Assembly (NCBI RefSeq): GCF_000027125.1
Contig: NC_017626.1
DNA length: 64,000 nucleotides
Source: Escherichia coli 042
Lineage (GTDB): Bacteria; Pseudomonadota; Gammaproteobacteria; Enterobacterales; Enterobacteriaceae
Strand: one strand, 5' to 3'
Part shown: piece after piece, positions 28,682 to 64,000 of the stretch
Numbering within the stretch: the first letter of the stretch is position 1
Layout of the letters: each line of letters begins with the position of its first letter
Made by a program: the position numbers and the translations under genes
Notes under the pieces: model-generated
The model's input: only the letters and a program-made list of their open reading frames with translations
Told to the model about the DNA's origin: nothing
Databases searched by the model: none

Positions 28682-30775
28682 TCAACTCAACGCCCCCATA
28701 ATCTTCAACTCCAGCTCATCCGGCACTTCGTTATACGACAGCACATGCAGACCCGGCGCAAACAACCTTGCATAACGCGCCAGCAAAGGACGCAGCTGCG
28801 GCGGCACCAGCAGCACAGGGGCTTTCCCCGCTGCTTTCATCTGCTCCTTCACCTGCGGCATCGTACTCTGGAACTGGTTGAGCATATTCGGGTCAACCGG
28901 CACGCTGTCGAGCATCACTTTGCCGGCCTGTTGCGCCTGATTCACCACATTGGTCAGCAGATTTTCCAGCTCATTATTCAGCGTATACACCGTCAGCTCC
29001 TGTTTGCGAACGAACGGATGGGTAATGCTGCGCCGCAGCGCCAGGCGCACATCGGCCGCCAGCAGAATATGATCTTTGGTCAATGTGCTACTGGCGACCA
29101 GCACAGTGGCGATGGTGACGATATCGCGCAGGGAAACGCCTTCGGTCAGTAATGCACGGTACACTTTCAGCAACTGGCTGTAATTGAGCGCTGCGCTCAA
29201 ATCTTCCGCCAGTCGCGGTGCCATCGACGACAAACGATTATGCAACTGCGTAATATCGTCATAGTTAAATAAATCAGGAATATAGCTGCGCACAATCTTA
29301 TTCACATGGGTGGCAATCACGCTGGCGCTGTCGATCACCTGATACCCCATATTCAGCGCCTTCGCTTTCTGCGCGGGCTGGATCCAGGTCACCGGCATCC
29401 CGTACGCCGGGTCGTTCCCCAGCACGCCGTCAATCTCGCCGTAGGTTTCGCTGGAGGGCAGGGCCATCAGTTTATCCGCCGGAATATCCGCTTCATCAGC
29501 CTTAATGCCATTGATGAAAATGGCGTACTGGCTGGGCTTGAGGCGGAAGTTTTCCCGAATACGGATCTCCGGCAGCAGCACGCCGTTGCCGTCGGAAATC
29601 ACCTGCCGCACGCCGCGAATCCGCTGGGTGAGCGGGTTACCTTGGGCTTTATCGACTAGCGCCACCAGCTTGTAGCCGAGGCTTAAGCTGATGGGCTCGA
29701 TCAGCGGAATGGTTTCCCAACTGACCTGTTGCTCGCTGGTTTCGGTGATGGTTCGGGTCAGCGTTTCGAGGCTTTTCTCCTCCGCCTCCGCCGCCTGCGG
29801 GCGTTTGCTCATCCGCCAGCCGGTAAAGCCAAGCAGGGCGCTGAACAGCAAAAATGGCAGATGCGGCATCCCCGGCACCACCGCCAGCACAAACATGATC
29901 CCGGTGGCGGTGTAGAGCACCGACGGGCTTGCCAGCAGCTGGTGGCGCACGTCATGGGCGATATCGCCGTTGTCGCTGACGCGGGTGACGATAATTGCCG
30001 CTGCGGTGGAGAGCAGCAGGGACGGGATCTGCGCCACCAGCCCGTCGCCGATGGTCATCAGCACATACTGCTGGAAGGCGGCGTCGGCGCTCAGGTTGTA
30101 TTTGAAGATGCCGATACAGACGCCGCCGATCAGGTTGATCGCCAGAATCATCATCCCGGCGATGGCGTCCCCGCGCACAAACTTCGATGCCCCGTCCATC
30201 GCGCCGTAGAAATCGGCCTCGCTGGCAACATCTTTACGCCGGGTTTGCGCCTGCGCCTGGTTGATCAACCCAGCGTTAAGATCGGCGTCAATCGCCATCT
30301 GTTTACCGGGCATCGCGTCTAAGGTAAAGCGGGCAGAAACCTCGGAAATACGCTCGGCCCCTTTGGTGACGACGATAAAGTTGATGATCATCAGGATGAT
30401 AAACACCACAAAGCCGACGACAAAGTTGCCGCCAATCACCACCTGACCAAATGACTCAATTACCTTACCCGCCGCGCCCGCGCCGAGATGCCCGTGCAGC
30501 AACACCACGCGCGTAGAAGCAACGTTGAGCGTCAGGCGCATTAAGGTGGTGATCAGCAAAATGGTCGGGAACAGGCTGAATTCCAGCGGCCTTTTCGCTG
30601 ACACCGCCACCAGCAGTACCATCACCGCCAGCACAATGTTGAAGGTGAACAGAATATCCAGCAGCGCAGGCGGCAGCGGCAAAATAACCATCGCCAGAAT
30701 ACACAGGATCACCAGCGGCACGCCGAGATTGCCGCCGCGCAGTAGCGCGAGGAACGATTTAGTTGTTTTCGCCAT
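28682..30775 (-). CDS. lfhA: Lateral flagellar export apparatus protein FlhA homolog
   Basis: 697-aa full-length FlhA-family ORF. Confidence 0.95.
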   Translation of the reverse strand: MAKTTKSFLALLRGGNLGVPLVILCILAMVILPLPPALLDILFTFNIVLAVMVLLVAVSAKRPLEFSLFPTILLITTLMRLTLNVASTRVVLLHGHLGAGAAGKVIESFGQVVIGGNFVVGFVVFIILMIINFIVVTKGAERISEVSARFTLDAMPGKQMAIDADLNAGLINQAQAQTRRKDVASEADFYGAMDGASKFVRGDAIAGMMILAINLIGGVCIGIFKYNLSADAAFQQYVLMTIGDGLVAQIPSLLLSTAAAIIVTRVSDNGDIAHDVRHQLLASPSVLYTATGIMFVLAVVPGMPHLPFLLFSALLGFTGWRMSKRPQAAEAEEKSLETLTRTITETSEQQVSWETIPLIEPISLSLGYKLVALVDKAQGNPLTQRIRGVRQVISDGNGVLLPEIRIRENFRLKPSQYAIFINGIKADEADIPADKLMALPSSETYGEIDGVLGNDPAYGMPVTWIQPAQKAKALNMGYQVIDSASVIATHVNKIVRSYIPDLFNYDDITQLHNRLSSMAPRLAEDLSAALNYSQLLKVYRALLTEGVSLRDIVTIATVLVASSTLTKDHILLAADVRLALRRSITHPFVRKQELTVYTLNNELENLLTNVVNQAQQAGKVMLDSVPVDPNMLNQFQSTMPQVKEQMKAAGKAPVLLVPPQLRPLLARYARLFAPGLHVLSYNEVPDELELKIMGALS

Positions 30776-31898
30776 CCAGTTTAAGCACCTCTTTGGGAAT
30801 GGAAATATGTCTGTTCAGGGCCGGGCGCGGCTGTGCACCATCGCGCCAGTGTTTCATTTGCAGGACGTAGGTCAGAACGTGGGCGATAGCCCGGTAAAGC
30901 TGAAAAGGAATTTGCTGATTCACCTGAGTGGTGTAGTAAACCGAGCGCGCCAGCCGCGGGAACTCGACCACTTCCACCTGACTTTCAGCAGCGACCTGGC
31001 GAATATAGAGGGCGATTTCATCGGTGCCTTTCGCCACCACAAACGGCGCGGCGGCACGCGACTGGTCATACTGCAACGCCACGGCGTAGTGGGTCGGGTT
31101 GGTGATCACCACGTTGGCCTTTGGCACCACTTTGCGAATTTGCCCCATCGCCAGTTGCCGTTGCAGCCGCCGCACGCGCGCCTTCACTTCCGGCTTGCCT
31201 TCCTGATTTTTGTACTCTTCTTTCAGTTTTTGTTTGGTCATCTTCAGCCCTTTGGTGAACAGGGCTTTCGCCAGCGGCACGTCGAGAAGCGCAAAGAAAA
31301 TAAACAGGATGACAAAGTTGCGCATCACGCTGGCGTAGAGCGACAAACCGTCATTCATCGCCAGTTTGAACGGCAGCGCCTGCAGGCCGAGAAAGGCGGC
31401 AAAGTTATTGCGCAGGCTTACCCACAGCATCACCAGCACCACGGCAGACTTCACCGTCATCTTTCCCGTTTCCGCCAGATGTTCACTGGAAAACAGCCGC
31501 CTAATCCCTTTTAACGGACTGATTTTGCTGAAATCCGGGAGGATTTTTTTCGGCAGAAACAGCCAGCCGCCGGGCACCAGTGAGGAGAGCAGCGCGGCGG
31601 CGGGCATTGGCAGCAAGGTAAGAATAAACTTGCCGAGAATTAACAGGTGATGGCGCAGAAACTGGCCGATAGCGTCCGGGTTATTAATCTCCTGCGCGTA
31701 CTGATGCACGCTGATAAAACTCTCGCGCACAAAATCGGCATACCACGGGAAGCTGCTGGAGATCACCACAAACGCCGCAAACAGGCTCGCCGCCAGCCCC
31801 ATATCCTTCGAGCGCGGCAGTTGCCCCTCTTCACGCGCTTTACGCAGCTTTTGCGCCGAGGGTTTCTCTGTTTTTTCTTCGCTGCTGCTATCCGCCAT
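30759..31898 (-). CDS. lfhB: Lateral flagellar export switch protein FlhB homolog
   Basis: 379-aa FlhB-family ORF overlapping lfhA by 17 nt. Confidence 0.95.
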   Translation of the reverse strand: MADSSSEEKTEKPSAQKLRKAREEGQLPRSKDMGLAASLFAAFVVISSSFPWYADFVRESFISVHQYAQEINNPDAIGQFLRHHLLILGKFILTLLPMPAAALLSSLVPGGWLFLPKKILPDFSKISPLKGIRRLFSSEHLAETGKMTVKSAVVLVMLWVSLRNNFAAFLGLQALPFKLAMNDGLSLYASVMRNFVILFIFFALLDVPLAKALFTKGLKMTKQKLKEEYKNQEGKPEVKARVRRLQRQLAMGQIRKVVPKANVVITNPTHYAVALQYDQSRAAAPFVVAKGTDEIALYIRQVAAESQVEVVEFPRLARSVYYTTQVNQQIPFQLYRAIAHVLTYVLQMKHWRDGAQPRPALNRHISIPKEVLKLDGENN

Positions 31899-35059: not shown

Positions 35060-35168
<109 letters not shown>

Positions 35169-36293: not shown

Positions 36294-36635
36294 ATGAGCA
36301 TTACCACAATCAACAGCACCATGCAGGCGCAAATCATGCAGGACGTGCAGCGGATGCAGGCCAACGCCCAGGCACCGGTGCTGCCCGCCATGACCTTCAG
36401 TTCCACCGACCCGGACGTTTCGTTTAACCGCATTATGTCCGGCGCGCTCGGTCACGTTGACCAGTTCCAGCAGGTGGCGGAGCAGCAGCAAACAGCTATC
36501 GACACGGGCAAAAGTGATGATTTAGCAGGTGCGATGATCGCCAGCCAGCAGGCGTCGCTCTCTTTCTCCGCGCTGGTGCAGGTGCGCAACAAAATCGCCA
36601 CCGGATTTAACGATCTGATGAGTATGTCGATCTAA
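36294..36635 (+). CDS. lfiE: Lateral flagellar MS-ring/rod junction protein FliE homolog
   Basis: 113-aa ORF, FliE size and character. Confidence 0.85.
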   Translation: MSITTINSTMQAQIMQDVQRMQANAQAPVLPAMTFSSTDPDVSFNRIMSGALGHVDQFQQVAEQQQTAIDTGKSDDLAGAMIASQQASLSFSALVQVRNKIATGFNDLMSMSI

Positions 36636-36639: not shown

Positions 36640-38286
36640 ATGAATGCACAAATAAAGAAGTTAACCCAGGCGTTTCCGGCGTTTCGACTGCGTCTTGCAG
36701 ATAACAAACGCTGGGCATTGATGGCGGGAGTGGGGCTTGCCGTTGCGGCGACGGCGATTATCGTTAGTGTGCTGTGGACCGGTAATCGCGGCTACGTCTC
36801 GCTCTACGGACGCCAGGAAAATCTGCCCGTGTCGCAGATTGTCACCGTGCTGGACGGTGAAAAGCTCAGCTACCGCATTGACCCGCAGAGCGGGCAAATT
36901 CTGGTGCCGGAAGACGCGTTGTCGAAAACGCGCATGACCCTTGCCGCCAAAGGCGTGCAGGCGATATTGCCCAGCGGCTACGAGCTGATGGACAAAGACG
37001 AAGTGCTCGGCAGCAGCCAGTTCGTGCAGAACGTGCGCTACAAACGCAGCCTCGAAGGGGAGCTGGCGCAGAGCATTATGTCGCTGGACTCGGTGGAGAG
37101 TGCGCGGGTGCATCTGGCGCTTAACGAAGAAAGTTCGTTTGTGGTCAGCGATGAGCCGCAAAACAGCGCCTCGGTGGTGGTGCGCCTGCACTACGGCGCG
37201 AAGCTGAATATGGACCAGGTGAACGCCATTGTGCATCTGGTGTCCGGCAGCATTCCGGGGCTGCACGCCAGCAAAGTTAGCGTCGTCGATCAGGCGGGAA
37301 ATCTGCTGACCGACGGCATTGGCGCAGGCGAGGCGGTTTCTGCCGCCACCCGTAAACGCGATCAAATCCTCAAAGATATCCAGGACAAAACCCGCGCCAG
37401 CGTGGCGAACGTGCTGGATTCGCTGGTTGGTACGGGGAATTACCGCGTCAGCGTCATGCCGGATCTCGACCTCAGTACCATCGACGAAACCCAGGAACAC
37501 TACGGCGACGCGCCGAAAATCAACCGCGAAGAAAACGTGCTGGACAGCGACACTAATCAGGTGGCGATGGGCGTACCCGGCTCGCTCAGCAACCGTCCGC
37601 CCGTTGCGGCGAATCAGATGACCAACGGTACGGAAGAAAATCGCTCGCCGGAAGCGTTATCCAAACACAGCGAAAGCAAGCGCGATTACTCTTACGACCG
37701 CAGCGTCCAGCATATTCAGCATCCCGGATTTGCGGTGAAACGCCTTAACGTGGCGGTGGTGCTCAATCAAAACGCCCCGGCGATGAAAAACTGGAAGCCG
37801 GAGCAGACCGCACAGCTTACCGCGCTGCTGAACAATGCCGCCGGGATCGACGTCCAGCGCGGTGACAATCTCACCTTATCGCTGCTTAACTTTGTCCCGC
37901 AGGCGGTGCCGGTCGAACCAATTATTCCGCTGTGGAAAGATGACAGCGTGCTGGCCTGGGTACGCCTGATTGGCTGCGGCCTGCTGGCGCTGTTGTTGCT
38001 GTTCTTTGTGGTGCGCCCGGTAATGAAACGCCTGACGGCGGTGCGTGCGCCGGTTATCACACCAGAACCGGAAGCTGTCAGCGAACCGTGGATTGCCATG
38101 CCGGAAGAGGAGCGCAAAAACGTCGACCTGCCGTCGCTGCCTGGTGATGACAGCCTGCCGTCCCAGAGTTCCGGCCTCGAAGTAAAACTCGAGTTCCTGC
38201 AAAAACTGGCCATGAGCGACACCGATCGCGTAGCCGAAGTTCTCAGACAATGGATCACCAGCAATGAGCGAATTGACAACAAATAA
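36640..38286 (+). CDS. lfiF: Lateral flagellar MS-ring protein FliF homolog
   Basis: 548-aa ORF with N- and C-terminal TM segments. Confidence 0.9.
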   Translation: MNAQIKKLTQAFPAFRLRLADNKRWALMAGVGLAVAATAIIVSVLWTGNRGYVSLYGRQENLPVSQIVTVLDGEKLSYRIDPQSGQILVPEDALSKTRMTLAAKGVQAILPSGYELMDKDEVLGSSQFVQNVRYKRSLEGELAQSIMSLDSVESARVHLALNEESSFVVSDEPQNSASVVVRLHYGAKLNMDQVNAIVHLVSGSIPGLHASKVSVVDQAGNLLTDGIGAGEAVSAATRKRDQILKDIQDKTRASVANVLDSLVGTGNYRVSVMPDLDLSTIDETQEHYGDAPKINREENVLDSDTNQVAMGVPGSLSNRPPVAANQMTNGTEENRSPEALSKHSESKRDYSYDRSVQHIQHPGFAVKRLNVAVVLNQNAPAMKNWKPEQTAQLTALLNNAAGIDVQRGDNLTLSLLNFVPQAVPVEPIIPLWKDDSVLAWVRLIGCGLLALLLLFFVVRPVMKRLTAVRAPVITPEPEAVSEPWIAMPEEERKNVDLPSLPGDDSLPSQSSGLEVKLEFLQKLAMSDTDRVAEVLRQWITSNERIDNK

Positions 38287-39274
38287 GAGCAACAGCTACC
38301 TGGAACAGGCGGCGATCCTGCTGCTGTGTCTGGGCGAAGAAGCGGCGGCGACGGTGATGCAAAAACTCAGCCGCGAAGAAGTGGTGCGCCTGAGCGAAAA
38401 CATGGCGCGGCTTTCCGGCGTCAAAACCAGCATGGCGCGCAGAGTGATCAACAACTTCTTTGATGAATTCCGCGAACAGAGCGGCATCAACGGCGCATCG
38501 CGATCCATGTTGCAGGGGATCCTCAACAAAGCCCTCGGCACCGAGATCGCCAGCAGCGTGATCAACGGCATCTACGGCGATGAGATCCGCTCGCGGATGG
38601 CGCGCCTGCAATGGGTGGAACCGCGCCAGTTAGCGATGCTGATCTCCGAAGAACATCTGCAATTGCAGGCGGTATTCCTCGCGTTTCTGACGCCGGAAAT
38701 CTCGGCAGCGGTGCTCTCTTATCTCAACGAATCGGTGCAAAACGAAATTCTCTACCGGGTGGCGAAACTCAACGATGTTAACCGCGACGTGGTGGATGAA
38801 CTGGATCGCCTGATCGAACGCGGCCTGTCGGTGCTTTCGGAGCACGGCTCGAAGGTAAAAGGCATCAAACAGGCGGCGGATATCGTCAACCGCTTCCAGG
38901 GTAACCAGCAGGTGATCCTCGACCAGATGCGCGAGCGCGACGAAGAGGTGCTGGAGCAGCTTCAGGATGAGATGTACGACTTCTTTATCCTCAGCCGCCA
39001 GAACGAAGAGGTGCGTCGACGTCTGCTCGACGAAGTACCGATGGAAGACTGGGCGGTAGCGCTGAAAGGCACCGAAGCCCTGTTGCGCCGTTCCATTTAC
39101 GCTGTGATGCCAAAACGTCAGGCGCAGCAACTGGAAGCCATTACCGCGCGTCTGGGGCCGGTGCCGGTCAGCCGTATCGAACAGATCCGCCGCGAAATCA
39201 TGGGCATTGCCCGTGAACTGGAAGAGGCGGGCGAAATTCAGCTACAGCTCTTTGCGGAACAGACGGCGGAGTAA
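38264..39274 (+). CDS. lfiG: Lateral flagellar motor switch protein FliG homolog
   Basis: 336-aa FliG-like ORF. Confidence 0.9.
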   Translation: MSELTTNKSNSYLEQAAILLLCLGEEAAATVMQKLSREEVVRLSENMARLSGVKTSMARRVINNFFDEFREQSGINGASRSMLQGILNKALGTEIASSVINGIYGDEIRSRMARLQWVEPRQLAMLISEEHLQLQAVFLAFLTPEISAAVLSYLNESVQNEILYRVAKLNDVNRDVVDELDRLIERGLSVLSEHGSKVKGIKQAADIVNRFQGNQQVILDQMRERDEEVLEQLQDEMYDFFILSRQNEEVRRRLLDEVPMEDWAVALKGTEALLRRSIYAVMPKRQAQQLEAITARLGPVPVSRIEQIRREIMGIARELEEAGEIQLQLFAEQTAE

Positions 39275-39277
39275 CCC

Positions 39278-39988
39278 ATGACCATTGAAACACTGCGCGG
39301 GCGCTATCGCCTGCACCGTTTTCCGCCGCGCCAGCGTGCGGTGACAGGAGAACCGCTCACCGCCAGCATTAGCGCCGCCGATTACCAGCGCCAGTTGATG
39401 GACGGTTTTCAGGAAGGGCTGCAAAAAGGCTTTGCTCAGGGAATGACCGAAGGTCAGGAGCAGGGCTTTAGCGAAGGTCATCAGCAAGGTTTTGCCGAGG
39501 GGCGACGCCAGGGTTACACCGAAGGCAGCCTCGCCGGGCAGCAGGAAGGGCGCAAACAGTTTGTTGAGGCGGCGCAGCCGCTGAAAGCCATCACCGGAAA
39601 AGTGAACGACTTCCTCGCCCATATCGAACGTAAACAGCGGGAAGATTTGCTGCAACTGGTGGAAAAAGTCACCCGCCAGGTGATCCGCTGCGAACTGGCG
39701 CTGCAACCGACGCAGTTGCTGGCGCTGGTGGAAGAGGCACTGGCGGCCTTCCCGGCGATGCCGGAGACCCTGCAAGTAATGCTGAGCACGGAAGAATTTA
39801 ACCGCCTGCGCGACGCGGTGCCGGAAAAGGTCAGTGAATGGGGGCTGACGCCTTCGCCGGATCTGCCGCCGGGGGAATGCCGGGTGATCACTGATAAATC
39901 AGAACTGGATATCGGCTGCGAGCATCGCCTGGAACAGTGCATGACCGCACTGAAAGAAACCCTAACGCCGGAGTCTCAGGGTGAGTGA
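39278..39988 (+). CDS. lfiH: Lateral flagellar export ATPase regulator FliH homolog
   Basis: 236-aa ORF with the AxxxG/GxxxG repeat tract (GFQEGLQKGFAQGMTEGQEQGFSEGHQQGFAEG). Confidence 0.85.
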   Translation: MTIETLRGRYRLHRFPPRQRAVTGEPLTASISAADYQRQLMDGFQEGLQKGFAQGMTEGQEQGFSEGHQQGFAEGRRQGYTEGSLAGQQEGRKQFVEAAQPLKAITGKVNDFLAHIERKQREDLLQLVEKVTRQVIRCELALQPTQLLALVEEALAAFPAMPETLQVMLSTEEFNRLRDAVPEKVSEWGLTPSPDLPPGECRVITDKSELDIGCEHRLEQCMTALKETLTPESQGE

Positions 39989-41318
39989 TTTTTCCGCTTT
40001 CGATAACGCGCTGCGCTCGCTGGAGTCGATCCCGCTGGCCCGCGTCGCCGGGCGGCTGGTGCGGCTTAACGGCATCCTGCTGGAGTGCGTCGGCTGCTCG
40101 CTAATGACCGGACAACTGTGCCGCATCGAAAGCGCCAATCACACGCTGATCGACGCGCAGGCCGTGGGCTTTAACCGCGACATCACCTACTTAATGCCGT
40201 TTAAACAGCCGGTCGGACTGATGGCGGGCGCACGCGTCTTCCCGGAAGAAAAAGCCCACGACATCCTGATTGGCGAAAGCTGGTTAGGCCGCGTGGTTAA
40301 CGGCCTCGGCGAACCGCTGGATGGCAAAGGTCGCCTGAACGGCAACGATCTTCTGCCGCCGCTGCCGCCGTCGGTCAATCCCTTAACCCGCCGATCGGTG
40401 GACGAACCGCTGGACGTGGGCGTGAAAGCGATCAACGGCCTGCTGACCATCGGCAAAGGCCAGCGCGTCGGTCTGATGGCGGGCAGCGGCGTCGGGAAAA
40501 GTGTGCTGCTGGGGATGATCACCCGCCAGACCAAAGCCGATATCGTGGTGGTCGGGCTGATTGGCGAACGCGGGCGCGAAGTGAAAGAGTTTATCGACCA
40601 CTCACTGGGCGCGGACGGGTTGGCAAAGTCTATCGTCGTCGTCGCGCCTGCCGATGAATCGCCGCTGATGCGCCTGAAAGCCACCGAACTGTGCCACTCC
40701 ATCGCTGCCTGGTTTCGCGACCGCGGGCATCACGTTTTACTGCTGGTGGATTCCCTGACCCGTTACGCGATGGCCCAGCGGGAAATAGCTCTCTCGCTCG
40801 GCGAACCGCCCGCCACCAAAGGCTATCCGCCGTCGGCATTCGGCATGATCCCCAAACTGGTCGAGAGCGCAGGCAACAGCGAAAGCTCGGGATCGATGAC
40901 CGCCATCTACACCGTGCTGGCGGAAGGCGACGATCAGCAAGATCCGATTGTCGACTGCGCCCGTGCGGTGCTGGACGGGCATATCGTATTAACCCGCAAA
41001 CTGGCGGAAGCGGGGCATTATCCGGCCATTGATATCGGCCAGTCGATCAGCCGCTGCATGAATCAGGTGACCAGCCTGGAACATCAGCAATCCGCCCGTG
41101 CGTTAAAGCAAAACTACGCCGCGTATATGGAGATCAAACCGCTGATCCCGCTCGGCGGCTACGTGGCAGGTGCCGACGCCAGCGTCGACAAAGCGGTAAA
41201 AATGTTCCCGGCTATCGAGCGGTTTTTGCGCCAGGAGATGCGCGAACCCGCCTCCCTGGAACTGGTGCAAAGCCGCCTGCAAATCCTCTTTCCTGGCGTC
41301 AAAAAGGCAGAACAGTAA
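39981..41318 (+). CDS. lfiI: Lateral flagellum-specific export ATPase FliI homolog
   Basis: 445-aa ORF with Walker A GSGVGKS and F1-ATPase-like fold character. Confidence 0.95.
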   Translation: MSDFSAFDNALRSLESIPLARVAGRLVRLNGILLECVGCSLMTGQLCRIESANHTLIDAQAVGFNRDITYLMPFKQPVGLMAGARVFPEEKAHDILIGESWLGRVVNGLGEPLDGKGRLNGNDLLPPLPPSVNPLTRRSVDEPLDVGVKAINGLLTIGKGQRVGLMAGSGVGKSVLLGMITRQTKADIVVVGLIGERGREVKEFIDHSLGADGLAKSIVVVAPADESPLMRLKATELCHSIAAWFRDRGHHVLLLVDSLTRYAMAQREIALSLGEPPATKGYPPSAFGMIPKLVESAGNSESSGSMTAIYTVLAEGDDQQDPIVDCARAVLDGHIVLTRKLAEAGHYPAIDIGQSISRCMNQVTSLEHQQSARALKQNYAAYMEIKPLIPLGGYVAGADASVDKAVKMFPAIERFLRQEMREPASLELVQSRLQILFPGVKKAEQ

Positions 41319-42217: not shown

Positions 42218-42320
42218 ATGTTTAAAAAATCGCGTTTTTTCGACATATCCCCAAAACATGTCGATGGCATAAACGTATTCCAACGACATGTTTAAAAATC
42301 GCATTTTATCGACATATCCC
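42218..42320. repeat. Two direct copies of a ~33-bp hairpin-forming element between the convergent transferase genes
   Basis: ATGTTTAAAAAATCGCGTTTTTTCGACATATCCCC (about 42218-42252) and ATGTTTAAAAATCGCATTTTATCGACATATCCC (about 42288-42320); each has an A-run/T-run hairpin core. Confidence 0.6.
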
Positions 42321-52240: not shown

Positions 52241-52906
52241 GTGAAAAATTATCTCTGGCTGGTGGCGCTGCTTCCACTCCTTAGCGGGTGTGAATCACAG
52301 GCCATTCTGGTCAAAAAAGACGACGCATACTTTGCGCCACCCAAAACCGAAGCGCCGCCTCCGGCAGACGGGCGTGCCGGGGGCGTGTTTGAAACTGGCT
52401 ACAACTGGTCGCTAACCGCCGACCGGCGGGCTTACCGCGTGGGCGATATCCTGACGGTGATCCTCGAAGAATCTACCCAGTCGAGCAAACAGGCGAAAAC
52501 CAACTTCGGCAAAAACAACACCGTCGATATCGGCGCGCCGACCATTTTTGGTCACACCAAAGATAAGCTTTCCGGCTCTATCGACGCCAACCGCGACTTT
52601 GACGGCAGCGCCACTTCCCAGCAGCAGAACAGCCTGCGCGGGGAGATCACCGTTTCCGTCCATGCGGTGCAGCCCAACGGCATTCTGGAAATTCGCGGCG
52701 AAAAATGGCTCACCCTCAACCAGGGTGATGAGTACATCCGCTTAAGCGGCCTGGTGCGCGCCGACGATATCCAGAACGACAACTCGGTTTCCTCCCAGCG
52801 GATCGCCGACGCCCGCATTTCCTATGCCGGACGCGGCGCGTTAAGCGACGCCAACGCCGCAGGCTGGCTGACGCGGTTGTTTAACCATCCTCTGTTCCCG
52901 ATTTAA
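52241..52906 (+). CDS. lfgH: L-ring lipoprotein FlgH homolog
   Basis: 221-aa ORF with lipobox LLSGC. Confidence 0.9.
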
Positions 52907-54021
52907 TGCCGGAGAGTGCAATGCAAAACTGGATAAAGGCCGCAGCGATCGCTGTAAGCCTGGCGCTGCCCGGCGTGGCGCTGGCGCAATCGCTGGAGTC
53001 GCTGGTCAACGTACAGGGCGTGCGTGAAAACCAACTGGTCGGCTACAGCCTGGTGGTCGGCCTCGACGGCACGGGTGATAAAAACCAGGTCAAATTCACC
53101 AACCAGACCATCACCAATATGCTGCGCCAGTTTGGCGTGCAGCTGCCGAATAAAATCGACCCGAAGGTGAAAAACGTCGCGGCGGTGGCGGTGAGCGCCA
53201 CGCTGCCGCCGATGTACTCGCGCGGGCAGACCATTGACGTCACCGTTTCGTCGATTGGCGATGCCAAAAGTATTCGCGGCGGCACTTTATTGCTTACGCA
53301 GCTGCACGGCGCAGATGGCGAAGTGTATGCCCTGGCGCAGGGAAGTGTGGTGGTGGGCGGGATGAATGCCACCGGGGCCAGCGGTTCCAGCGTGACGGTT
53401 AACACACCGACCGCCGGGTTAATTCCCAACGGCGCGACGGTGGAGCGTGAGATCCCCAGCGATTTTCAGATGGGCGACACCATCACCCTCAACCTGAAAC
53501 GCCCGTCGTTTAAAGATGCCAACAATATTGCGGCGGCGATCAACGCTTCGTTTGGCGGCATCGCCACCGCGCAGAGTTCCACCAACGTTACCGTGCGCGC
53601 GCCCACCAGCCCCGGCGCGCGGGTGGCGTTTATGTCGCAACTGGATGATGTACAGGTGCAGGTAGAGAAAATCCGCGCCCGCGTGGTGTTTAACTCGCGC
53701 ACTGGCACGGTGGTAATGGGCGATGGCGTTGCGCTGCACGCGGCGGCGGTGTCGCACGGCAGTTTGACCGTCTCGATTAACGAAACCAGCAACGTCAGCC
53801 AGCCGAATGCCTTTGCGGGCGGGCGCACGGCGGTAACGCCGCAGAGCAATATCGCGGTGAATCACGCCCGTCCGGGGGTGGTGAGTTTGCCGGAGTCGAG
53901 CAGCCTGAAAACGTTGGTTAATGCGTTGAACAGTTTAGGCGCGACGCCGGATGACATTATGTCGATTTTGCAGGCGCTGCATGAAGCGGGCGCGCTGGAT
54001 GCCGACCTGGAGGTGATCTGA
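52906..54021 (+). CDS. lfgI: P-ring protein FlgI homolog
   Basis: 371-aa ORF with signal peptide, FlgI-like. Confidence 0.9.
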
Positions 54022-54320: not shown

Positions 54321-54335
54321 GGCTCCGACGTTCGG

Positions 54336-54495: not shown

Positions 54496-55872
54496 ATGGA
54501 CATGATTAACATCGGCTACAGCGGCGCATCAACCGCGCAGGTGGAGCTGAACGTCACGGCGCAAAACACCGCCAACGCCATGACCACGGGCTACACCCGT
54601 CAGGTGGCGGAGATCAGCACCATCGGTGCCAGCGGCGGTTCGCCGAACAGCGCCGGTAACGGCGTGCAGGTCGATAGCATTCGCCGCGTCTCCAACCAGT
54701 ATCAGGTGAATCAGGTGTGGTATGCCGCCAGCGATTACGGCTATTACAGCACCCAGCAAGGGTATCTCACGCAACTGGAAGCGGTACTGAGCGACGATAA
54801 CAGCAGCCTGAGCGGCGGCTTCGATAACTTTTTCGCCGCCCTTAACGAAGCGACCACCAGCCCCGATGATTCCGCCCTGCGCGAGCAGGTGATCAGCGAA
54901 GCCGGGGCGCTGTCGCTGCGTATCGACAACACGCTGGATTACATCGACTCGCAAAGCACGGAAATCATCAGCCAGCAGCAGGCGATGGTGTCGCAAATTA
55001 ATACGCTCACCAGCGGTATCGCCAGCTATAACCAGCAAATCGCTCAGGCCGAAGCCAACGGCGATAACGCCTCCGCGCTGTACGACGCCCGCGACCAGAT
55101 GGTGGAAGAACTCAGCGGGATGATGGATGTGCAGGTCAATATCGACGACCAGGGCAACTACAACGTTACCCTGAAAAACGGTCAACCGCTGGTGAGCGGG
55201 CAGCAAAGCTCGACCATCGCGCTGGAAACCAACGCCGACGGCACGCCGACCATGTCGCTGACCTTCGCCGGAACCACCTCGACGATGACCACCGACACTG
55301 GAGGTTCATTAGGCGCACTGTTTGATTATCAAAACGACGTGCTGACGCCGCTGACCGACACCATCAACAGCATGGCGTCGCAGTTTGCCGATGCGGTCAA
55401 CAATCAACTGGCGCAGGGCTACGATCTCAACGGCAACCCCGGCGAGCCGCTGTTTATTTATGACGCCAGCAACGCCGATGGCCCGCTGACCGTCAACCCG
55501 GATATCACCGCCGATGAGCTGGCGTTTTCCAGTTCACCGGACGAAAGCGGTAACAGCGACAACTTACAGGCGCTGATCAATATCTCCACCGAACCGCTGG
55601 AGATAGCCAACCTCGGCAGCGTGACGGTCGGGCAGGCGTGCTCGTCAATCATCAGCAATATCGGCATTTACAGCCAGCAAAACCAGACGGAAGTCGATGC
55701 CGCGTCCAATGTCTATTCCGCAGCGCAAAACCAGCAGAGCAGCGTCAGCGGCGTCAGCATGGACGAAGAGGCGGTTAACCTGATCACCTATCAACAAATT
55801 TATGAAGCCAATCTGAAAGTCATTTCCGCCGGGGCCGAGATTTTCGATTCGGTGCTGGAAATGTGCAGCTAA
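54496..55872 (+). CDS. lfgK: Hook-associated protein 1 FlgK homolog
   Basis: 458-aa ORF with conserved axial-protein N- and C-termini. Confidence 0.85.
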   Translation: MDMINIGYSGASTAQVELNVTAQNTANAMTTGYTRQVAEISTIGASGGSPNSAGNGVQVDSIRRVSNQYQVNQVWYAASDYGYYSTQQGYLTQLEAVLSDDNSSLSGGFDNFFAALNEATTSPDDSALREQVISEAGALSLRIDNTLDYIDSQSTEIISQQQAMVSQINTLTSGIASYNQQIAQAEANGDNASALYDARDQMVEELSGMMDVQVNIDDQGNYNVTLKNGQPLVSGQQSSTIALETNADGTPTMSLTFAGTTSTMTTDTGGSLGALFDYQNDVLTPLTDTINSMASQFADAVNNQLAQGYDLNGNPGEPLFIYDASNADGPLTVNPDITADELAFSSSPDESGNSDNLQALINISTEPLEIANLGSVTVGQACSSIISNIGIYSQQNQTEVDAASNVYSAAQNQQSSVSGVSMDEEAVNLITYQQIYEANLKVISAGAEIFDSVLEMCS

Positions 55873-55886: not shown

Positions 55887-56816
55887 ATGCGAGTAACCAC
55901 CCAACAAACCTACGTCTCGATGACGCAAAGTTTTAATAATCTCTCCGGCGATCTGGCGCATGTGGTCGAGCAGATGGCAACCGGCAAGGAAATTTTGCAG
56001 CCGTCGGATGACCCGATCGCCGCCACGCGCATCACCCAGTTGAACCGCCAACAGTCGGCGATTGAGCAGTATCAGAGCAATATCGACTCCGCGTCGGCGG
56101 GGTTAAGTCAGCAGGAATCAATCCTTGATGGCGTCAACAACAGCCTGCTGGCGGTGCGCGACGACCTGCTGGAAGCGGCGAATGGCACCAATACCGCCGA
56201 TTCGCTCGCAAGTCTCGGGCAGGATATTGAGTCGCTCACCGAATCAATGGTCGTGGCGCTGAACTATCAGGACGAAGACGGGCATTACGTGTTTGGCGGT
56301 ACCATCAACGATCAGCCGCCGATTGTGGCGGTGGACGATGACGGCGATGGCGTGACCGACAGCTACAGCTATCAGGGCAACAGCGACCACCGCCAGACCA
56401 CGGTGTCGAACGGCGTGGAAGTGGATACCAACGTGGCGGTGAGCGATTTCTTCGGCAGCAATTTAGATGTGCTCAACACACTGAATACCCTGTCGCAGGA
56501 GTTGCAAGACCCAAACGTTGACCCGGCCGATCCGCAGGTGCAGAGCGATATTCAGAACGCCGTTGATGTGGTGGACACCGCCTCGGATAACCTCAACGCC
56601 TCGATTGCGTCGCTCGGCGAGACGCAGAACACCATGTCGATGTTGAGCGATGCGCAGACCGATATCTCTACCTCTAATGATGAGCTGATTGGTTCATTAC
56701 AGGATCTCGATTACGGCCCGGCGTCGATCACCTTTACCGGACTGGAAGTAGCAATGGAAGCTACCCTCAAGACTTACTCGAAAGTGAGTGAGTTGAATTT
56801 GTTCAGCGTTCTCTAA
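55887..56816 (+). CDS. lfgL: Hook-associated protein 3 FlgL homolog
   Basis: Start at MRVTTQQTYVSM; flagellin-like N-terminus. Confidence 0.8.
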   Translation: MRVTTQQTYVSMTQSFNNLSGDLAHVVEQMATGKEILQPSDDPIAATRITQLNRQQSAIEQYQSNIDSASAGLSQQESILDGVNNSLLAVRDDLLEAANGTNTADSLASLGQDIESLTESMVVALNYQDEDGHYVFGGTINDQPPIVAVDDDGDGVTDSYSYQGNSDHRQTTVSNGVEVDTNVAVSDFFGSNLDVLNTLNTLSQELQDPNVDPADPQVQSDIQNAVDVVDTASDNLNASIASLGETQNTMSMLSDAQTDISTSNDELIGSLQDLDYGPASITFTGLEVAMEATLKTYSKVSELNLFSVL

Positions 56817-57882: not shown

Positions 57883-58227
57883 ATGATGTGGGACGTCGAG
57901 ACAACGGAGACTTTCGACAACTGGTTTGATGCCCAGACTGTTGCGCTGAAAGAAGATTTACTTGCTGCAATGCTGATTCTTGCTGAGTATGGCCCACAGT
58001 TGGGCAGACCCTTTGCGGATACGGTTAATGATTCACAGTTTTCAAATATGAAAGAATTACGCGTCCAACATCAGGGAAACCCGGTACGTGCTTTTTTTGC
58101 TTTCGATCCTGCGCGCCGTGGCATTGTATTATGTGCGGGTGATAAAACGGGGTTAAATGAGAAAAAGTTTTATCGCGATATGATCAAGCTCGCTGATTCT
58201 GAATACCGTAAGCATCTGAAAAAGTAA
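57883..58227 (+). CDS. RelE/ParE-superfamily toxin (HigB-like, toxin-first arrangement)
   Basis: 114-aa ORF (MMWDVETTETFDNWFD...GPQLGRPFADT...KELRVQHQGNPVRAFFAFDPARRGIVLCAGDKTG) matching the addiction-module killer protein family. Confidence 0.7.
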   Translation: MMWDVETTETFDNWFDAQTVALKEDLLAAMLILAEYGPQLGRPFADTVNDSQFSNMKELRVQHQGNPVRAFFAFDPARRGIVLCAGDKTGLNEKKFYRDMIKLADSEYRKHLKK

Positions 58228-58236: not shown

Positions 58237-58536
58237 ATGGCTACTCTAAAAGAACTGATGGCAAAGCAAAGCCCTGAAAGCCAGGCGCGTATTGCGGCAA
58301 AAGTTGAGGAAATGCGCCAGACCATCGCCTTGCATCAGCTGAGAGAAGAACTCAATATTTCGCAAACGGAAATGGCGGCAGCGATGGGCATTAAGCAACC
58401 GACTCTTGCAAAAATGGAGCAGGCAGATAACGATCCTCGGTTGTCTACGCTAAAACGCTATGTTGCGGCTTTAGGTGGGGAATTGAGTATCGACGTTAAA
58501 CTGCCGAATGGTAAGAGAATTGCATTTCAGATTTAA
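58237..58536 (+). CDS. HTH (XRE-type) antitoxin, HigA-like
   Basis: 99-aa ORF 10 nt after the toxin gene; HTH region ELNISQTEMAAAMGIKQPTLAKME. Confidence 0.7.
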   Translation: MATLKELMAKQSPESQARIAAKVEEMRQTIALHQLREELNISQTEMAAAMGIKQPTLAKMEQADNDPRLSTLKRYVAALGGELSIDVKLPNGKRIAFQI

Positions 58537-60836: not shown

Positions 60837-60880
60837 TGGCGGACTTGCCGATGCGGCGTAAACGCCTTATCCGGCCACGA

Positions 60881-60993: not shown

Positions 60994-61009
60994 TGGCACG
61001 CCTTTTGCC
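60994..61009 (+). promoter_or_regulatory. Sigma-54 (-24/-12) promoter upstream of lafB
   Basis: TGGCAC-GCCTT-TTGCC, consensus spacing, about 32 nt upstream of the lafB ATG. Confidence 0.75.
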
Positions 61010-61040: not shown

Positions 61041-62357
61041 ATGATTAACCCAAGAACCATTGCGCAAGAAATTGCTTATGCGGATGTCGCCACCCAGGCG
61101 GCAAATTTGCAGGAGAAGCAGACCGAGCTGGACGCTGAAAGCAGCGGCCTGGACTCGCTCAGCTCGGCGTTAAGCGATTTCCAGAGCGCCGTTGACGCGC
61201 TGAACAGCGATACCGACGGCCCGGTGACTTTTGCCGCCACCAGCAATAATGACTCGGCGACCGTTTCCGCTAACTCGCAGGCACAGGCGGGAAGCTACTC
61301 GTTTTTCGTTGAGCAACTGGCGCAGGGGCAGCAAACCACGTTCAGTATGGGCGACGACGCCTTTTCCGCTACCGGTACTTTTGAACTGACGATGGGCGAC
61401 AGCACCATGGATATCGATCTGTCGGCGGCAGATCAGAACGGTGACGGCGACGGTTTTATCGACGCCAGCGAACTGGTGAACGCGATTAACGACTCCGATG
61501 ATAATCCAGGCGTTTCAGCGGCGTTGGTGAAAACCGACGGCACCACCACCATTATGCTCACCTCCGATAGCACCGGGGCGCAGAGCGCGTTTTCGGTGAG
61601 CGTAACGGGGCATGATGCCAGCAACGATAGCACCAGCGCGCCCGTTGCCACGGTTGTTTCCTCAGCCCAGGACGCGATTATTCATCTCGGTAGCGCCACG
61701 GGCCCGGCGATCACCAACAGCAGCAATACGTTTGATGATGTGATCCCCGGCGTCACCATGACTTTTACCGAAGTCAGCGATTCTGACAGCGACCTCACCA
61801 CTTTTAACATCAGCGAAGATTCCAGCTCCAGCCAGGAGAAAGTACAGACTTTTGTCGATGCCTATAACACCTTGATTGATACGGTTGATTCGCTAACCAC
61901 TCACGGTGATGACAGTACCAGCGCCGGGGTATTTGCAGGCGACGCCGGACTCAGTTCACTGGCGAACCAGCTCGATGACATCGCCCATGCCAGCTACAAC
62001 GGCGTGTCGATTGTTGACTATGGCATCACCCTCGATTCTCACGGCCACTTACAGATTGACTCCGACCAGTTCAACGACGAAATGGCGAAAAATCCTGACG
62101 GTCTGACCTCTATTTTCGTTGGCGACAACAGCATGGTAGCGCAGATGGACGACCTGATTAACACCTACACGGACTCCAGCAACGGCATCATCACCCTGCG
62201 CCAGCAGAACATTGACGATCAGATGAGCAAAATTCAGGACGAAGGCGATCAGCTTACTGATACCTATAACGCCAACTACGACCGTTATCTCGAGGAGTAC
62301 ACCAACACGCTGGTCGAGGTGTACACCATGAAAGCCAGCATGGCGGCATTCGCGTAA
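61041..62357 (+). CDS. lafB: Filament cap protein FliD homolog
   Basis: 438-aa ORF with FliD-like N- and C-terminal coiled-coil segments. Confidence 0.85.
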   Translation: MINPRTIAQEIAYADVATQAANLQEKQTELDAESSGLDSLSSALSDFQSAVDALNSDTDGPVTFAATSNNDSATVSANSQAQAGSYSFFVEQLAQGQQTTFSMGDDAFSATGTFELTMGDSTMDIDLSAADQNGDGDGFIDASELVNAINDSDDNPGVSAALVKTDGTTTIMLTSDSTGAQSAFSVSVTGHDASNDSTSAPVATVVSSAQDAIIHLGSATGPAITNSSNTFDDVIPGVTMTFTEVSDSDSDLTTFNISEDSSSSQEKVQTFVDAYNTLIDTVDSLTTHGDDSTSAGVFAGDAGLSSLANQLDDIAHASYNGVSIVDYGITLDSHGHLQIDSDQFNDEMAKNPDGLTSIFVGDNSMVAQMDDLINTYTDSSNGIITLRQQNIDDQMSKIQDEGDQLTDTYNANYDRYLEEYTNTLVEVYTMKASMAAFA

Positions 62358-62379
62358 CTCAGAAGGAATATCCCTAAAG

Positions 62380-62772
62380 ATGTACCAAGTACAGGACGGC
62401 TATTCGCAATATAAAGAGATCGATCTCGCGGCGCGTACCGCGGCGGCATCGCCTCTGGAACTGGTGCTGGTGCTGTTTTCTGGCCTGATGGACGAGCTGG
62501 AACGCGCCAAAAGCCATATTGAAGGGCGGCGTTTCGAGAAGAAAGCCCAGAGCATCAATAAATGCATCGACATTCTCAATGCGCTCACCAGTTCGCTGGA
62601 ATTTGAAACCGGCGGCGAGCTGGTGGTCAACCTTTCGCGCCTCTATGACCACTGCGTTTACCGATTGTATGAAGCCAGCGGCGAACTGTCGGCAGAGAAA
62701 ATCGATGAAGTGATGCTGATCTTAAGCAACCTGCGCGAAGGCTGGGAAGGGCTTTCGGGCAAGCTGGGTTAA
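62380..62772 (+). CDS. lafC: Flagellin chaperone FliS homolog
   Basis: 130-aa ORF with FliS character. Confidence 0.85.
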   Translation: MYQVQDGYSQYKEIDLAARTAAASPLELVLVLFSGLMDELERAKSHIEGRRFEKKAQSINKCIDILNALTSSLEFETGGELVVNLSRLYDHCVYRLYEASGELSAEKIDEVMLILSNLREGWEGLSGKLG

Positions 62773-62776
62773 GACG

Positions 62777-63088
62777 ATGGAAAAACAACGCAGGCAACTT
62801 TTCGTACTGGTCGAGGCGATGAATGAAGCCCTCGACAAGCAACGCTGGCGACGCCTTCCGGCCCTGCATCAGCAGGTGATGCGCCAGTTTCACGATTATG
62901 CGACGGCGGAAACCGATGCGACGCAGTTGTGTGCGGTGAAGGCGCAACTGTACGGCGCGTTTAATGCCCTGATTAAACGACGCGAGCAGCGCGCAGAAGT
63001 GTTGAAAGCGCGTATGGAGCAGCATCAACGGCATCAGGAAGGTGTGCTGGCCTACTCAATTGTTAATTTACTTTCGGAGAAGTCATGA
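62777..63088 (+). CDS. lafD: FliT-like chaperone
   Basis: 103-aa helical ORF following fliS. Confidence 0.65.
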   Translation: MEKQRRQLFVLVEAMNEALDKQRWRRLPALHQQVMRQFHDYATAETDATQLCAVKAQLYGAFNALIKRREQRAEVLKARMEQHQRHQEGVLAYSIVNLLSEKS

Positions 63089-64000
63089 ATCCGGCATTGC
63101 TTGCCACGCTCGGAACGCTTGCGGAAACGGCGTCGCTGAAAGCGGATATTTTACCGCCGATGAGCGGTAAAAACGCGCCCGCGTTTACCCTGCCGAAAAT
63201 GGCGGTCGCGGCGGTGGCGGAGCGCGTTCATAGCGCTAAAACCAGTCAGCAACAGGCGACGCGCCCGCAGGAGAACGATCCGGTGGCGATGCAGGCGCTA
63301 ATGGCGCTGTTACTTCCGCAACCTGCCGCGACGCATCAGGACACGCCGCAGCCGCGAAACGTCGCAACATCGCCGGTTATTCAGCAATTGACGAAAGCGG
63401 TGGTGCAAAACGCGCCGCAACGCCCGACACAACAGCAGGAACTCACGACATTGCCGCCACAGTTGCAGGAACTGATCGGTCAGTTGCCGCAGGCGAAACC
63501 CGAACAGCAGGCCAGACTGGCAATTTACGCCAGTGAAGATTTACATGCCATTGCGCCGACGCAGCCGCGCGTCTCAACACAGCCCGCTCGCCCGAAACCT
63601 GAACTAACCCGTGTGACCGCGCGCCCACAGGTCGAGCGTAAAACGGAAAAAGTGCCGGACAGCGAACCGGTTATTGCGCGTGCGGTGTTGCAGGTTAAGA
63701 CGCCGGAGCTGGTCAGCCAGCATCAGGAGATTGTCGCCAAACCAGCCACGCTTTCAATGGACGAACTGGGCGAAAAACTGACGACGCTGTTGAAAGATCA
63801 GATCCACTTTCAGCTCAACAAACAACAGCAGATCTCCACCATCCGTCTCGATCCACCGTCGCTTGGCAAGCTCGAGATCGTCGTACAACTCGATAACGGC
63901 AAACTGATGGTGCACATCGGCGCGAACCAAAGTGAAGTTTGCCGCGCGTTACAACAGTTTAGCGACGATCTCCGCCAGCATCTGACGGCGCAAAATTTTA
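63085..64000 (+). CDS. lafE: Hook-length control protein FliK homolog (3' end beyond window)
   Basis: ORF starting ATG 63085 (MNPALLATLGTLAE...), Pro/Gln-rich linker then conserved FliK C-terminal region; no stop before the window end, so absent from the ORF track. Confidence 0.75.
   Translation, partial: MNPALLATLGTLAETASLKADILPPMSGKNAPAFTLPKMAVAAVAERVHSAKTSQQQATRPQENDPVAMQALMALLLPQPAATHQDTPQPRNVATSPVIQQLTKAVVQNAPQRPTQQQELTTLPPQLQELIGQLPQAKPEQQARLAIYASEDLHAIAPTQPRVSTQPARPKPELTRVTARPQVERKTEKVPDSEPVIARAVLQVKTPELVSQHQEIVAKPATLSMDELGEKLTTLLKDQIHFQLNKQQQISTIRLDPPSLGKLEIVVQLDNGKLMVHIGANQSEVCRALQQFSDDLRQHLTAQNF

Follow-up and report, generated by a model that had tools for sequence, protein, structure and literature searches.

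A chromosomal, lateral-type Flag-2 flagellar locus of Escherichia coli 042 carrying a frameshift in lfgC

The Flag-2 locus of enteroaggregative Escherichia coli 042 was reportedly the subject of a paper by Ren, Beatson, Parkhill and Pallen (2005, J Bacteriol 187:1430). Flag-2 is already known, from a description in 2005 and a survey of Enterobacterales published in 2020 (De Maayer et al., PMC6993521), and its published architecture consists of the clusters lfhAB-lfiRQPNM-lafK-lfiEFGHIJ, variable region 1, lfgNMABCDEFGHIJKL, lafW, variable region 2 and lafZABCDEFSTU (PMC6993521). Its published prevalence is about 20% (PMC4578781). For the lateral flagellar system of Vibrio parahaemolyticus, PMC3032704 cites Stewart and McCarter (2003). 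Here, we analyzed a 64,000-nucleotide stretch of E. coli 042 (contig NC_017626.1; the window hereafter). An open reading frame (ORF) listing and BLAST searches against 5,426 complete E. coli genomes identified positions 28682-64000 as Flag-2, from lfhA through a truncated lafE, and by homology and gene order this region is the chromosomal Flag-2 locus of E. coli and forms a second, self-contained set of flagellar genes of laf type. Taken as a whole, we regard it as very likely that the window carries a chromosomal, lateral-type Flag-2 locus, controlled by a cascade from LafK and sigma-54 to sigma-28 and inactivated at lfgC in this strain. What our analysis adds to the published picture is minor: the exact kind of frameshift and its recent origin, the cargo genes, a “FliT” assigned by position only, domain gaps in LafK and LfiM, and a mosaic pattern of divergence.

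The left border of the locus, at 28682, is the lfhA stop codon, and the right edge of the window, at 64000, cuts lafE. yafL (26811-27569) and rayT (also called yafM; 27746-28243) lie immediately before lfhA, and this flank is 99.98% identical to that of strain 3347558. The locus is collinear with the RefSeq-annotated flagellar blocks of strains CB6837 and 3347558, both of which lie downstream of yafL-rayT, and it occupies the same slot, in agreement with a preliminary description of this DNA, made from the sequence alone, that had called it Flag-2. Nucleotide identity is 98.5% over 34 kb to CB6837 and 97.4-98.9% over the locus to 3347558; queries of 23 kb and 22 kb matched complete E. coli genomes at 97.3-98.1%, and assembly GCA_014583195.1 matched the window at 99.995% over 20.9 kb. 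All 40 annotated Flag-2 products of 3347558 were recovered in the window by tblastn, at 92-100% amino acid identity and at full length save for lfgC, which is split by a frameshift, and lafE, which leaves the window at residue 305 of about 352. The order of the genes from lfhA to lafE matches the published architecture throughout the window, and at least 80% of positions 28682-52000 is contained in 1,238 of the 5,426 complete E. coli genomes (23%), in keeping with the published prevalence. Beyond the position of the window edge, CB6837 has the remainder of lafE and then genes for FliL, a sigma factor of the FliA/WhiG type, MotA and LafU, followed by dinB, which is where the preliminary description had expected the motor and sigma-28 genes to lie. 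The same dinB right flank, outside the window, is seen in relatives (CB6837) and, past the lfhA' and lafU' scars, in K-12. In MG1655, lfhA and lafU pseudogenes abut each other directly after rayT, bearing out the earlier statement that only remnants of the locus persist near rayT in K-12.

The preliminary description had itself asked whether these genes might belong to the primary peritrichous (Flag-1) regulon rather than to a second system. Families were assigned with NCBIfam models with curated cut-offs, plus Pfam, and Flag-1 proteins of K-12 from three chromosomal regions served as the comparison set. The core products do share broad flagellar families with Flag-1 proteins: FlhAB, FliE-J, FliN, FliP-R, FlgA-L and FliC, D and S have homologous counterparts in both systems, and the match between the FliM proteins runs via the C-terminal domain only. 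However, identity to the K-12 Flag-1 proteins is only 23-50%, and several products have no detectable match. The K-12 Flag-1 genes occupy three other chromosomal regions, and K-12 carries its lfhA' and lafU' scars at this site besides Flag-1. Window and K-12 proteins also pass different curated sub-models (FliI, FlgH, FliH, FlgE and flagellin). K-12 FliI, FlgH, FliH and flagellin pass FliI_clade1, NF001301, NF004266 and the FliC/FljB model NF005953, respectively, and their window counterparts pass NF005535, NF009072, NF009925 and the LafA model NF033376; K-12 FliI fails NF005535 (532 bits), and K-12 FlgH reaches only 129 bits on NF009072. A search of the window for flhDC, flhE, fliO, fliZ, motAB and fliA found none of them, and sigma-54 promoters and LafK stand in place of FlhDC control. 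Whereas K-12 Flag-1 is spread over three regions and includes flhDC, flhE, fliO, fliZ, che genes, a full-length, muramidase-bearing FlgJ (313 amino acids) and a 498-amino-acid flagellin, Flag-2 is a single block under LafK and sigma-54 control, with a 99-amino-acid LfgJ that is the rod-binding domain alone, without the muramidase domain, and a 304-amino-acid LafA.

As a reference for lateral systems, we used a 41-kb locus on chromosome 2 of Vibrio campbellii (L008), found by a LafA tblastn search of PLSDB, where it is filed as a “plasmid”; its flagellin passes the second LafA model, which verifies the locus as lateral. Identity to the V. campbellii lateral proteins versus K-12 Flag-1 was 60% versus 44.5% for LfhA, 59% versus 50% for LfiI, 62% versus 49% for LfiP, 45% versus 32% for LfiG, 39% versus 24% for LfiH and 45% versus 31% for LafC. 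LafK is 48.5% identical to V. campbellii LafK and has no K-12 Flag-1 counterpart. The identity of 23-50%, the different chromosomal site, the different sub-models and the missing flhDC, flhE, fliO and fliZ led us to reject membership of Flag-1, to which we give next to no chance. The higher similarity to V. campbellii, together with shared gene order and a LafA that passes NF033376, upholds the claim of a lateral, Vibrio-like type.

It might also be argued that a nonflagellar type III secretion system, such as the injectisome-like ETT2, has been misread as flagellar, and the models for SctV, U, R, S, T and N do pick up the export-apparatus proteins as well, at lower scores. For every export protein, however, the flagellar models outscore the Sct models; only FlhA, FliR, FliP and FliI pass their cut-offs, and no Sct model passes. 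Moreover, genes for the rod, hook, L and P rings, junction, cap and flagellin are all present in the window, and stator genes come next in relatives (CB6837). An injectisome was rejected on this gene content, and we attach virtually no weight to it. The locus is best read as flagellar and as Flag-2.

The gene set of this Flag-2 locus is present, as the preliminary description implied in calling the system “near-complete,” but that term hides an inactivating frameshift in lfgC. A 2-bp GC duplication has produced (GC)3 at 48015-48020. In translation, the lfgC frame reads MSFTDIYQISGSAMTARKRYV and then meets a stop codon at 48033-48035, after 21 codons, and the remainder of FlgC lies in another frame from 48017. 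In alignment, the window has GGCGCGCAAACG where CB6837, 3347558, LR134238.1 and LR134246.1 have GGCGCAAACG, and the extra GC is absent, leaving (GC)2, from all five relatives aligned directly. Among the 1,279 complete E. coli genomes that contain this lfgC segment, not one has the allele of the window; the best match is 97.6%, and in every match listed 329 bases of the record align with 331 of the query. The same GC insertion is carried by GCA_014583195.1, an assembly found by exact-protein look-up with the window LafV allele, and because it recurs in this independent assembly the insertion is real. LR134238.1 and LR134246.1, two assemblies with the same allele, lack the extra GC; since they keep (GC)2, the mutation is, as judged from these alignments, recent and lineage specific. 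Not all core genes of the locus are intact, therefore, owing to lfgC, and this leaves its membership of the Flag-2 family unaffected. The Flag-2 loci of CB6837, 3347558, PCN033, W and EC958, and those of other Enterobacterales, resemble the window in the genes they carry and the order of these genes, but their lfgC is intact.

FlgC is a proximal-rod protein, so that without LfgC no rod, and hence no hook or filament, is expected. We conclude from the sequence that the Flag-2 pathway in this strain is very probably dead through truncation of LfgC after 21 residues. In line with this, two papers give a frameshift in lfgC as the defect of enteroaggregative strain 042 (PMC3032704, PMC4578781). The 042 locus, as described in papers citing Ren et al., also resembles the window in its slot after rayT, its three gene clusters and its toxin-antitoxin pair, and no difference from it was detected at this level. 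Could the system nevertheless work, through reversion or slippage at (GC)3, cross-complementation by the Flag-1 FlgC or use for secretion only? The other 38 complete genes are intact, as is the visible part of lafE; the lesion is the gain of a single dinucleotide unit, evidently recent, and the loss of one unit would restore lfgC; and published work has suggested that Flag-2 might act in secretion. Nevertheless, three GC units are too few for phase variation to be efficient, the Flag-1 FlgC shares only 44% identity with what is left of LfgC, strain 042, with its frameshifted lfgC, is reported as swarming-negative in a paper that cites Ren et al. 2005 (PMC3032704), and even an intact locus is silent in EC958. 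We therefore think a working system very unlikely, and prefer inactivation at lfgC. The locus marks the strain as one of roughly one in four E. coli retaining an ancestral second flagellar system, in a copy that is very probably mutationally dead, as published for strain 042. Near-identical genomes in which the GC unit of lfgC is the sole difference amount to natural near-isogenic on/off pairs for Flag-2 function.

With respect to control, LafK aligns from about residue 3 with the central and C-terminal parts of the NtrC, NifA and FlbD models, and the spacer 5' of lafK contains a repetitive extragenic palindromic (REP) element and AT-rich DNA, with no remnant of a receiver domain. Exact TGGCAC-N5-TTGC sites, the sigma-54 consensus, occur twice in the 64 kb, before lfgB and before lafB, where about 0.1 would be expected for 10 fixed bases; a third candidate, upstream of lafV, has one mismatch (Table 1). 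Sigma-54 sites upstream of lfgB and lafB have been reported in strain PCN033 (PMC4578781). By analogy with the laf systems of Vibrio and Aeromonas, LafK with sigma-54 would turn on the operons beginning with lfgB and lafB, and perhaps lafV. The lafB operon would supply the sigma-28 gene lafS, past the window edge; the finished hook-basal body would export the anti-sigma factor LfgM; this export would free LafS for transcription of lafA; and LafT and LafU, also encoded past the edge, would power rotation. We infer such a sigma-54-to-sigma-28 cascade with partial support from promoter motifs.

Several points weigh against this overall picture. A scan 5' of lafA for the enterobacterial sigma-28 consensus TAAA-N14-16-GCCGATAA, exact or with 2 mismatches, found no promoter, and no sigma-54 sites were found for the lfiM and lafK operons, so that the motifs support the cascade only in part. 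The lafZ-lafA spacer (59437-59921; 485 bp) is unusually AT-rich (GC 0.35) and contains no recognizable sigma-28 or sigma-54 promoter; inspection of it by eye for -10-like CGATA[AT] motifs found none, and scans for sigma-70 promoters and terminators in the lafZ-lafA-lafB and lfiM-lafK spacers gave nothing useful above shuffle expectation. V. campbellii LafK (444 amino acids; L008 9933-11267) has an N-terminal receiver-like domain and aligns over its full length with response regulators, whereas E. coli LafK lacks this domain. A MotY/OmpA-like ORF, motY_L, adjoins lafK in V. campbellii and has no counterpart in the gene list of the window; motY is missing from E. coli Flag-2 in the literature too (including PMC3032704). 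With both the LafK receiver and motY_L missing, Flag-2 may depart from the Vibrio model in its control and in how the stator is anchored. Finally, even intact E. coli Flag-2 loci are without demonstrated function. In EC958 (ST131, lfgC intact), the one E. coli strain studied with mutants and an anti-LafA antibody, Flag-2 was found unexpressed and conferred no motility, and attempts to elicit swarming or lateral filaments from E. coli Flag-2 have been published as negative or inconclusive (including PMC3032704).

Differences in LafK, LafZ, LfiM and LafW, taken together, raise the possibility that enterobacterial Flag-2 is wired differently from the Vibrio lateral system. If so, a receiver-less LafK would be active whenever it is made, LafZ, which is not in the Vibrio locus examined, would be the source of sensory input, LfiM, without a recognizable CheY-binding N terminus, would leave the motor blind to chemotaxis, and LafW, with its predicted flagellin-like fold, would be an extra axial protein. 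For LfiM, the “fliM” of the preliminary description holds as far as the C-terminal FliM/N domain, and nothing more of FliM was detected: identity to V. campbellii FliM_L is 37% over 62 amino acids, and the LfiM N terminus, read for the CheY-P-binding motif LSQxEIDALL of K-12 FliM, contains none that is recognizable. We regard such rewiring as rather unlikely and keep to a lateral-type Flag-2 locus under LafK/sigma-54-to-sigma-28 control.

By homology, LfhAB, LfiPQR and LfiHIJ make up the locus's own type III export apparatus, LfiF, G, M and N form the MS and C rings, and LfgB-J account for the rod, the hook and the L and P rings. LfgKL, LafW, LafB and LafA are assigned to the junction, cap and filament, and LfgN, LfgA, LafC and LafD are assigned as chaperones. 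The TagD-like enzyme, the GT2/TagB-like transferase and LafV, a methylase, constitute cargo for flagellin modification, and the regulators are LafK, LfgM and LafZ. All gene classes previously listed for 28682-64000 were found there (Table 1), along with seven genes beyond that list, namely, the tagD-like gene, the GT2/TagB-like transferase gene, lafV, lafW, the Gp49/HigB-like toxin gene, the helix-turn-helix (HTH) antitoxin gene and lafZ.

Table 1. Genes and candidate promoters of the Flag-2 locus in the window, with the model matches or other observations on which each assignment rests (aa, amino acids)
Feature	Coordinates	Strand	Observations
lfhA, FlhA export gate, 697 aa	28682..30775	-	TIGR01398 772.8 bits (cut-off 772.1); 100% aa identity to 3347558
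lfhB, FlhB export switch, 379 aa	30759..31898	-	TIGR00328 338 bits (below cut-off 349); 99.7% to 3347558; 36% to K-12 FlhB
lfiR, FliR, 260 aa	31888..32670	-	TIGR01400 176.5 bits (cut-off 168.6)
lfiQ, FliQ, 90 aa	32672..32944	-	TIGR01402 79.6 bits (below cut-off 88.9); 100% to 3347558
lfiP, FliP, 250 aa	32947..33699	-	TIGR01103 245 bits (cut-off 217)
lfiN, FliN C ring, 123 aa	33696..34067	-	TIGR02480 83.5 bits (just under cut-off 84.05); 44% to K-12 FliN
lfiM, divergent FliM-like C-ring protein, 283 aa	34060..34911	-	C-terminal FliMN_C domain only
lafK, sigma-54-dependent activator, 326 aa	35299..36279	+	AAA+ and HTH domains, no receiver domain
lfiE, FliE	36294..36635	+	TIGR00205 73.5 bits (cut-off 30)
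lfiF, FliF MS ring	36640..38286	+	TIGR00206 221.5 bits (cut-off 129.75)
lfiG, FliG	38264..39274	+	TIGR00207 202.5 bits (below cut-off 226.7)
lfiH, FliH	39278..39988	+	NF009925 316 bits (cut-off 192)
lfiI, FliI export ATPase	39981..41318	+	NF005535 769 bits (cut-off 715)
lfiJ, FliJ	41321..41755	+	TIGR02473 58.3 bits (cut-off 50.45)
TagD-like glycerol-3-phosphate cytidylyltransferase, 134 aa, variable region 1	41758..42162	+	TIGR01518 113.7 bits (below cut-off); passes TIGR00125 cytidylyltransferase domain
823-aa transferase, variable region 1	42306..44777	-	N-terminal GT2: Pfam Glycos_transf_2 E=6e-17
lafV, FliB-like flagellin lysine-N-methylase, 309 aa	44956..45885	-	NF038110 E=1.8e-11, 44 bits (below cut-off 85)
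Sigma-54-type promoter candidate CGGCAC-N5-TTGC	45921..45935	-	one mismatch; 36 nt upstream of lafV start
lfgN, FlgN chaperone	46013..46441	-	Pfam FlgN recorded for an identical-length product; 96% to 3347558
lfgM, anti-sigma-28 FlgM	46454..46732	-	TIGR03824 49.2 bits (cut-off 40.75)
lfgA, P-ring chaperone FlgA	46813..47550	-	TIGR03170 118.8 bits (cut-off 54.65)
Sigma-54 promoter consensus TGGCACAGCGATTGC	47580..47594	+	exact match; 38 nt upstream of lfgB start
lfgB, proximal rod	47632..47967	+	TIGR01396 FlgB 102.6 bits (cut-off 59)
lfgC pseudogene, proximal rod FlgC	47970..48403	+	3' part: TIGR01395 FlgC 116 bits
lfgD, hook cap	48403..49107	+	NF007198 FlgD 206 bits (below cut-off 267)
lfgE, hook	49131..50333	+	NF005286 534.6 bits (cut-off 467)
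lfgF, rod	50333..51070	+	NF009280 314 bits (cut-off 210)
lfgG, distal rod	51249..52034	+	TIGR02488 351.8 bits (cut-off 252.75)
lfgH, L ring	52241..52906	+	NF009072 432 bits (cut-off 323)
lfgI, P ring	52921..54021	+	NF003676 451 bits (cut-off 300)
lfgJ, 99 aa	54021..54320	+	matches N-terminal ~95 positions only of FlgJ models
lfgK, hook-filament junction 1	54496..55872	+	TIGR02492 352 bits (cut-off 170.75)
lfgL, hook-filament junction 2	55887..56816	+	TIGR02550 197.5 bits (cut-off 127.2)
lafW, Flag-2 specific, 325 aa	56833..57810	+	predicted flagellin/hook-associated-like fold
Gp49/HigB-like toxin, 113 aa, variable region 2	57886..58227	+	Pfam Gp49 E=1.3e-20; RefSeq: RelE/ParE family toxin
HTH (Xre-type) antitoxin, 99 aa, variable region 2	58237..58536	+	weak HipB, Y4mF and RstR HTH model matches
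lafZ, ToxR/CadC-like membrane regulator, 280 aa	58594..59436	-	Pfam Trans_reg_C E=3.6e-13, residues 25-97; CadC model E=1.7e-8
lafA, lateral flagellin, 304 aa	59922..60836	+	NF033376 lat_flg_LafA_1 667 bits (cut-off 440)
Sigma-54 promoter consensus TGGCACGCCTTTTGC	60994..61008	+	exact match; 33 nt upstream of lafB start
lafB, FliD filament cap	61041..62357	+	NF005955 FliD E=2e-44, 152 bits (below cut-off 387)
lafC, FliS chaperone	62380..62772	+	TIGR00208 79.2 bits (cut-off 53.75)
lafD, FliT-like by position alone, 103 aa	62777..63088	+	similar-sized ORF at same place in V. campbellii
lafE, FliK-like hook-length control, cut at residue 305 of ~352	63085..64000	+	YscP/FliK-type C-terminal domain E=9e-7

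For LafA, the runner-up to NF033376 is the second LafA model, at 280 bits, and the best nonlateral flagellin model reaches 187 bits. The protein is 100% identical to a widespread E. coli LafA, 44% identical to V. campbellii LafA and, over the conserved ends, 36% identical to K-12 FliC; in a set of 5.8 billion proteins its best 120 matches are all enterobacterial LafA, and Vibrio was not reached among them. LafB is 34.5% identical to its V. campbellii homologue, and residues 1-305 of LafE are 95% identical to the 3347558 protein. The gene listed in the preliminary description as fliT is present at the expected position, but its product, LafD, has no detectable similarity to FliT: it matched no NCBIfam or Pfam family and showed no similarity to K-12 FliT. 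The LfgN product likewise had no match among NCBIfam models.

LafW matched no family in Pfam or NCBIfam. Its own family comprises about 120 clusters, none with a Pfam domain, and the homologues named by source are all from Enterobacterales. A profile built from 30 members gave a weak match (E=0.0027) to flagellin, in its C-terminal helices. In the AlphaFold (AF2) model of LafW (predicted local distance difference test [pLDDT] score, 72), a long helix at the N terminus is followed by a central alpha/beta domain and by helices at the C terminus, and the 11 significant fold matches of the model in PDB are all flagellins, with low TM-scores of 0.24-0.30. This predicted fold is in keeping with the label already in use, “putative hook-associated protein,” and is nothing unexpected. 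LafZ, as read directly from the sequence, has an N-terminal OmpR/ToxR-type winged helix followed by a single hydrophobic segment at about residues 152-172.

Variable region 1, between lfiJ and lfgN, encodes the TagD-like enzyme, the GT2 protein and LafV and has been published as a flagellin-modification region (PMC6993521). The 823-amino-acid transferase is 94% identical to its 3347558 counterpart, and its C-terminal part weakly resembles CDP-glycerol glycerophosphotransferase (TagB; Pfam Glyphos_transf E=0.004). For LafV, Pfam FliB_C is recorded for an identical protein. Variable region 2 is the published region between lafW and lafZ (PMC6993521); a toxin-antitoxin pair between these genes has been reported for strain 042 and is missing from strains W and Crooks (PMC3032704). 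EC958 is reported to be without lafW and lafZ.

Divergence is distributed unevenly along the locus. At 28-37 kb and 51-62 kb the window is about 100% identical to 3347558 and CB6837, and it is 3-6% diverged at 37000-51000, a stretch that runs from lfiF to lfgF and takes in variable region 1, and at 62000-64000 (lafC to lafE). This pattern of alignment indicates a recombinant mosaic and fits the published status of Flag-2 as a recombination hotspot.

Several repeats and mobile elements were also observed. REP elements and bacterial interspersed mosaic elements lie at 27566-28702, where the rayT-lfhA spacer holds a tandem array of four 101-bp units. Single or paired REPs occupy five intergenic spacers inside the Flag-2 locus, including those at 35084-35110, 51080-51215, 54330-54420 and 60850-60876, and several meet the gathering threshold of Rfam for naRNA4. 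These elements account for the tens of extra BLAST match places per genome. Another type of dispersed intergenic repeat, a GC-rich palindromic element (…GCCCTCACCCCGACCCTCTCCCACAGGGAGAGGG…), has two copies, 81% identical, at 44811-44889 and 52047-52125, in the transferase-lafV and lfgG-lfgH spacers. Between rayT and lfhA, 3347558 carries an ISEc31 split by a group II intron (ltrA; L003 9384-12867), and the window has the REP array only. The dinJ-yafQ toxin-antitoxin pair, which lies between dpaA and yafL in K-12, is absent at 26520-26810, where the gap is 291 bp versus 906 bp in K-12, and is also absent from CB6837 and 3347558. Farther to the left, positions 1-14000 carry a type VI secretion cluster (tssJ, tagH, tssG, F, E, C and B, hcp, vgrG, a DUF4123 adaptor gene and hypothetical effector-like genes) that is 100% identical to that of many E. 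coli genomes. A low-GC part at 10-20 kb (GC 0.38-0.46) holds cargo and insertion sequence remnants, and a group II intron lies at 15334-17153, with Rfam D1-D4 at 15334-15451, domains V/VI at 17078-17153 and an ltrA reverse transcriptase gene between them. In the identical region of 3347558, this intron lies within an ISAs1-family transposase gene.

Compared with the V. campbellii lateral locus, the window differs in several respects. Protein identity is only about 35-62%; lafV, lafW, lafZ and lafD found no match in the 41 kb examined; and the flg cluster of Vibrio lies apart from the fli and laf genes, whereas E. coli Flag-2 forms one block. Against these differences stands a common module order. 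In V. campbellii, lfiJIHGFE-lafK is divergent from lfiMNPQR-lfhBA, followed by lafA, fliD, fliS, a small ORF, fliK, fliL, a sigma-28 gene, motA and motB, and the same modules are found in the window together with the right end of its relatives. FliO is absent from both loci, which is a published trait of lateral flagellar systems. In the window, lfiP overlaps lfiN by 4 bp, leaving no fliO between them, and a K-12 FliO query found no match anywhere in the 64 kb. The anti-sigma factor LfgM is encoded in the window, and LafS, LafT and LafU are seen in relatives only (CB6837). Both systems have a short, LafA-type flagellin, and in both LafK is a sigma-54 activator encoded upstream of fliE. The traits of a lateral system found here are thus the LafA flagellin, closeness to lateral homologues, LafK with sigma-54 promoters and the lack of FliO.

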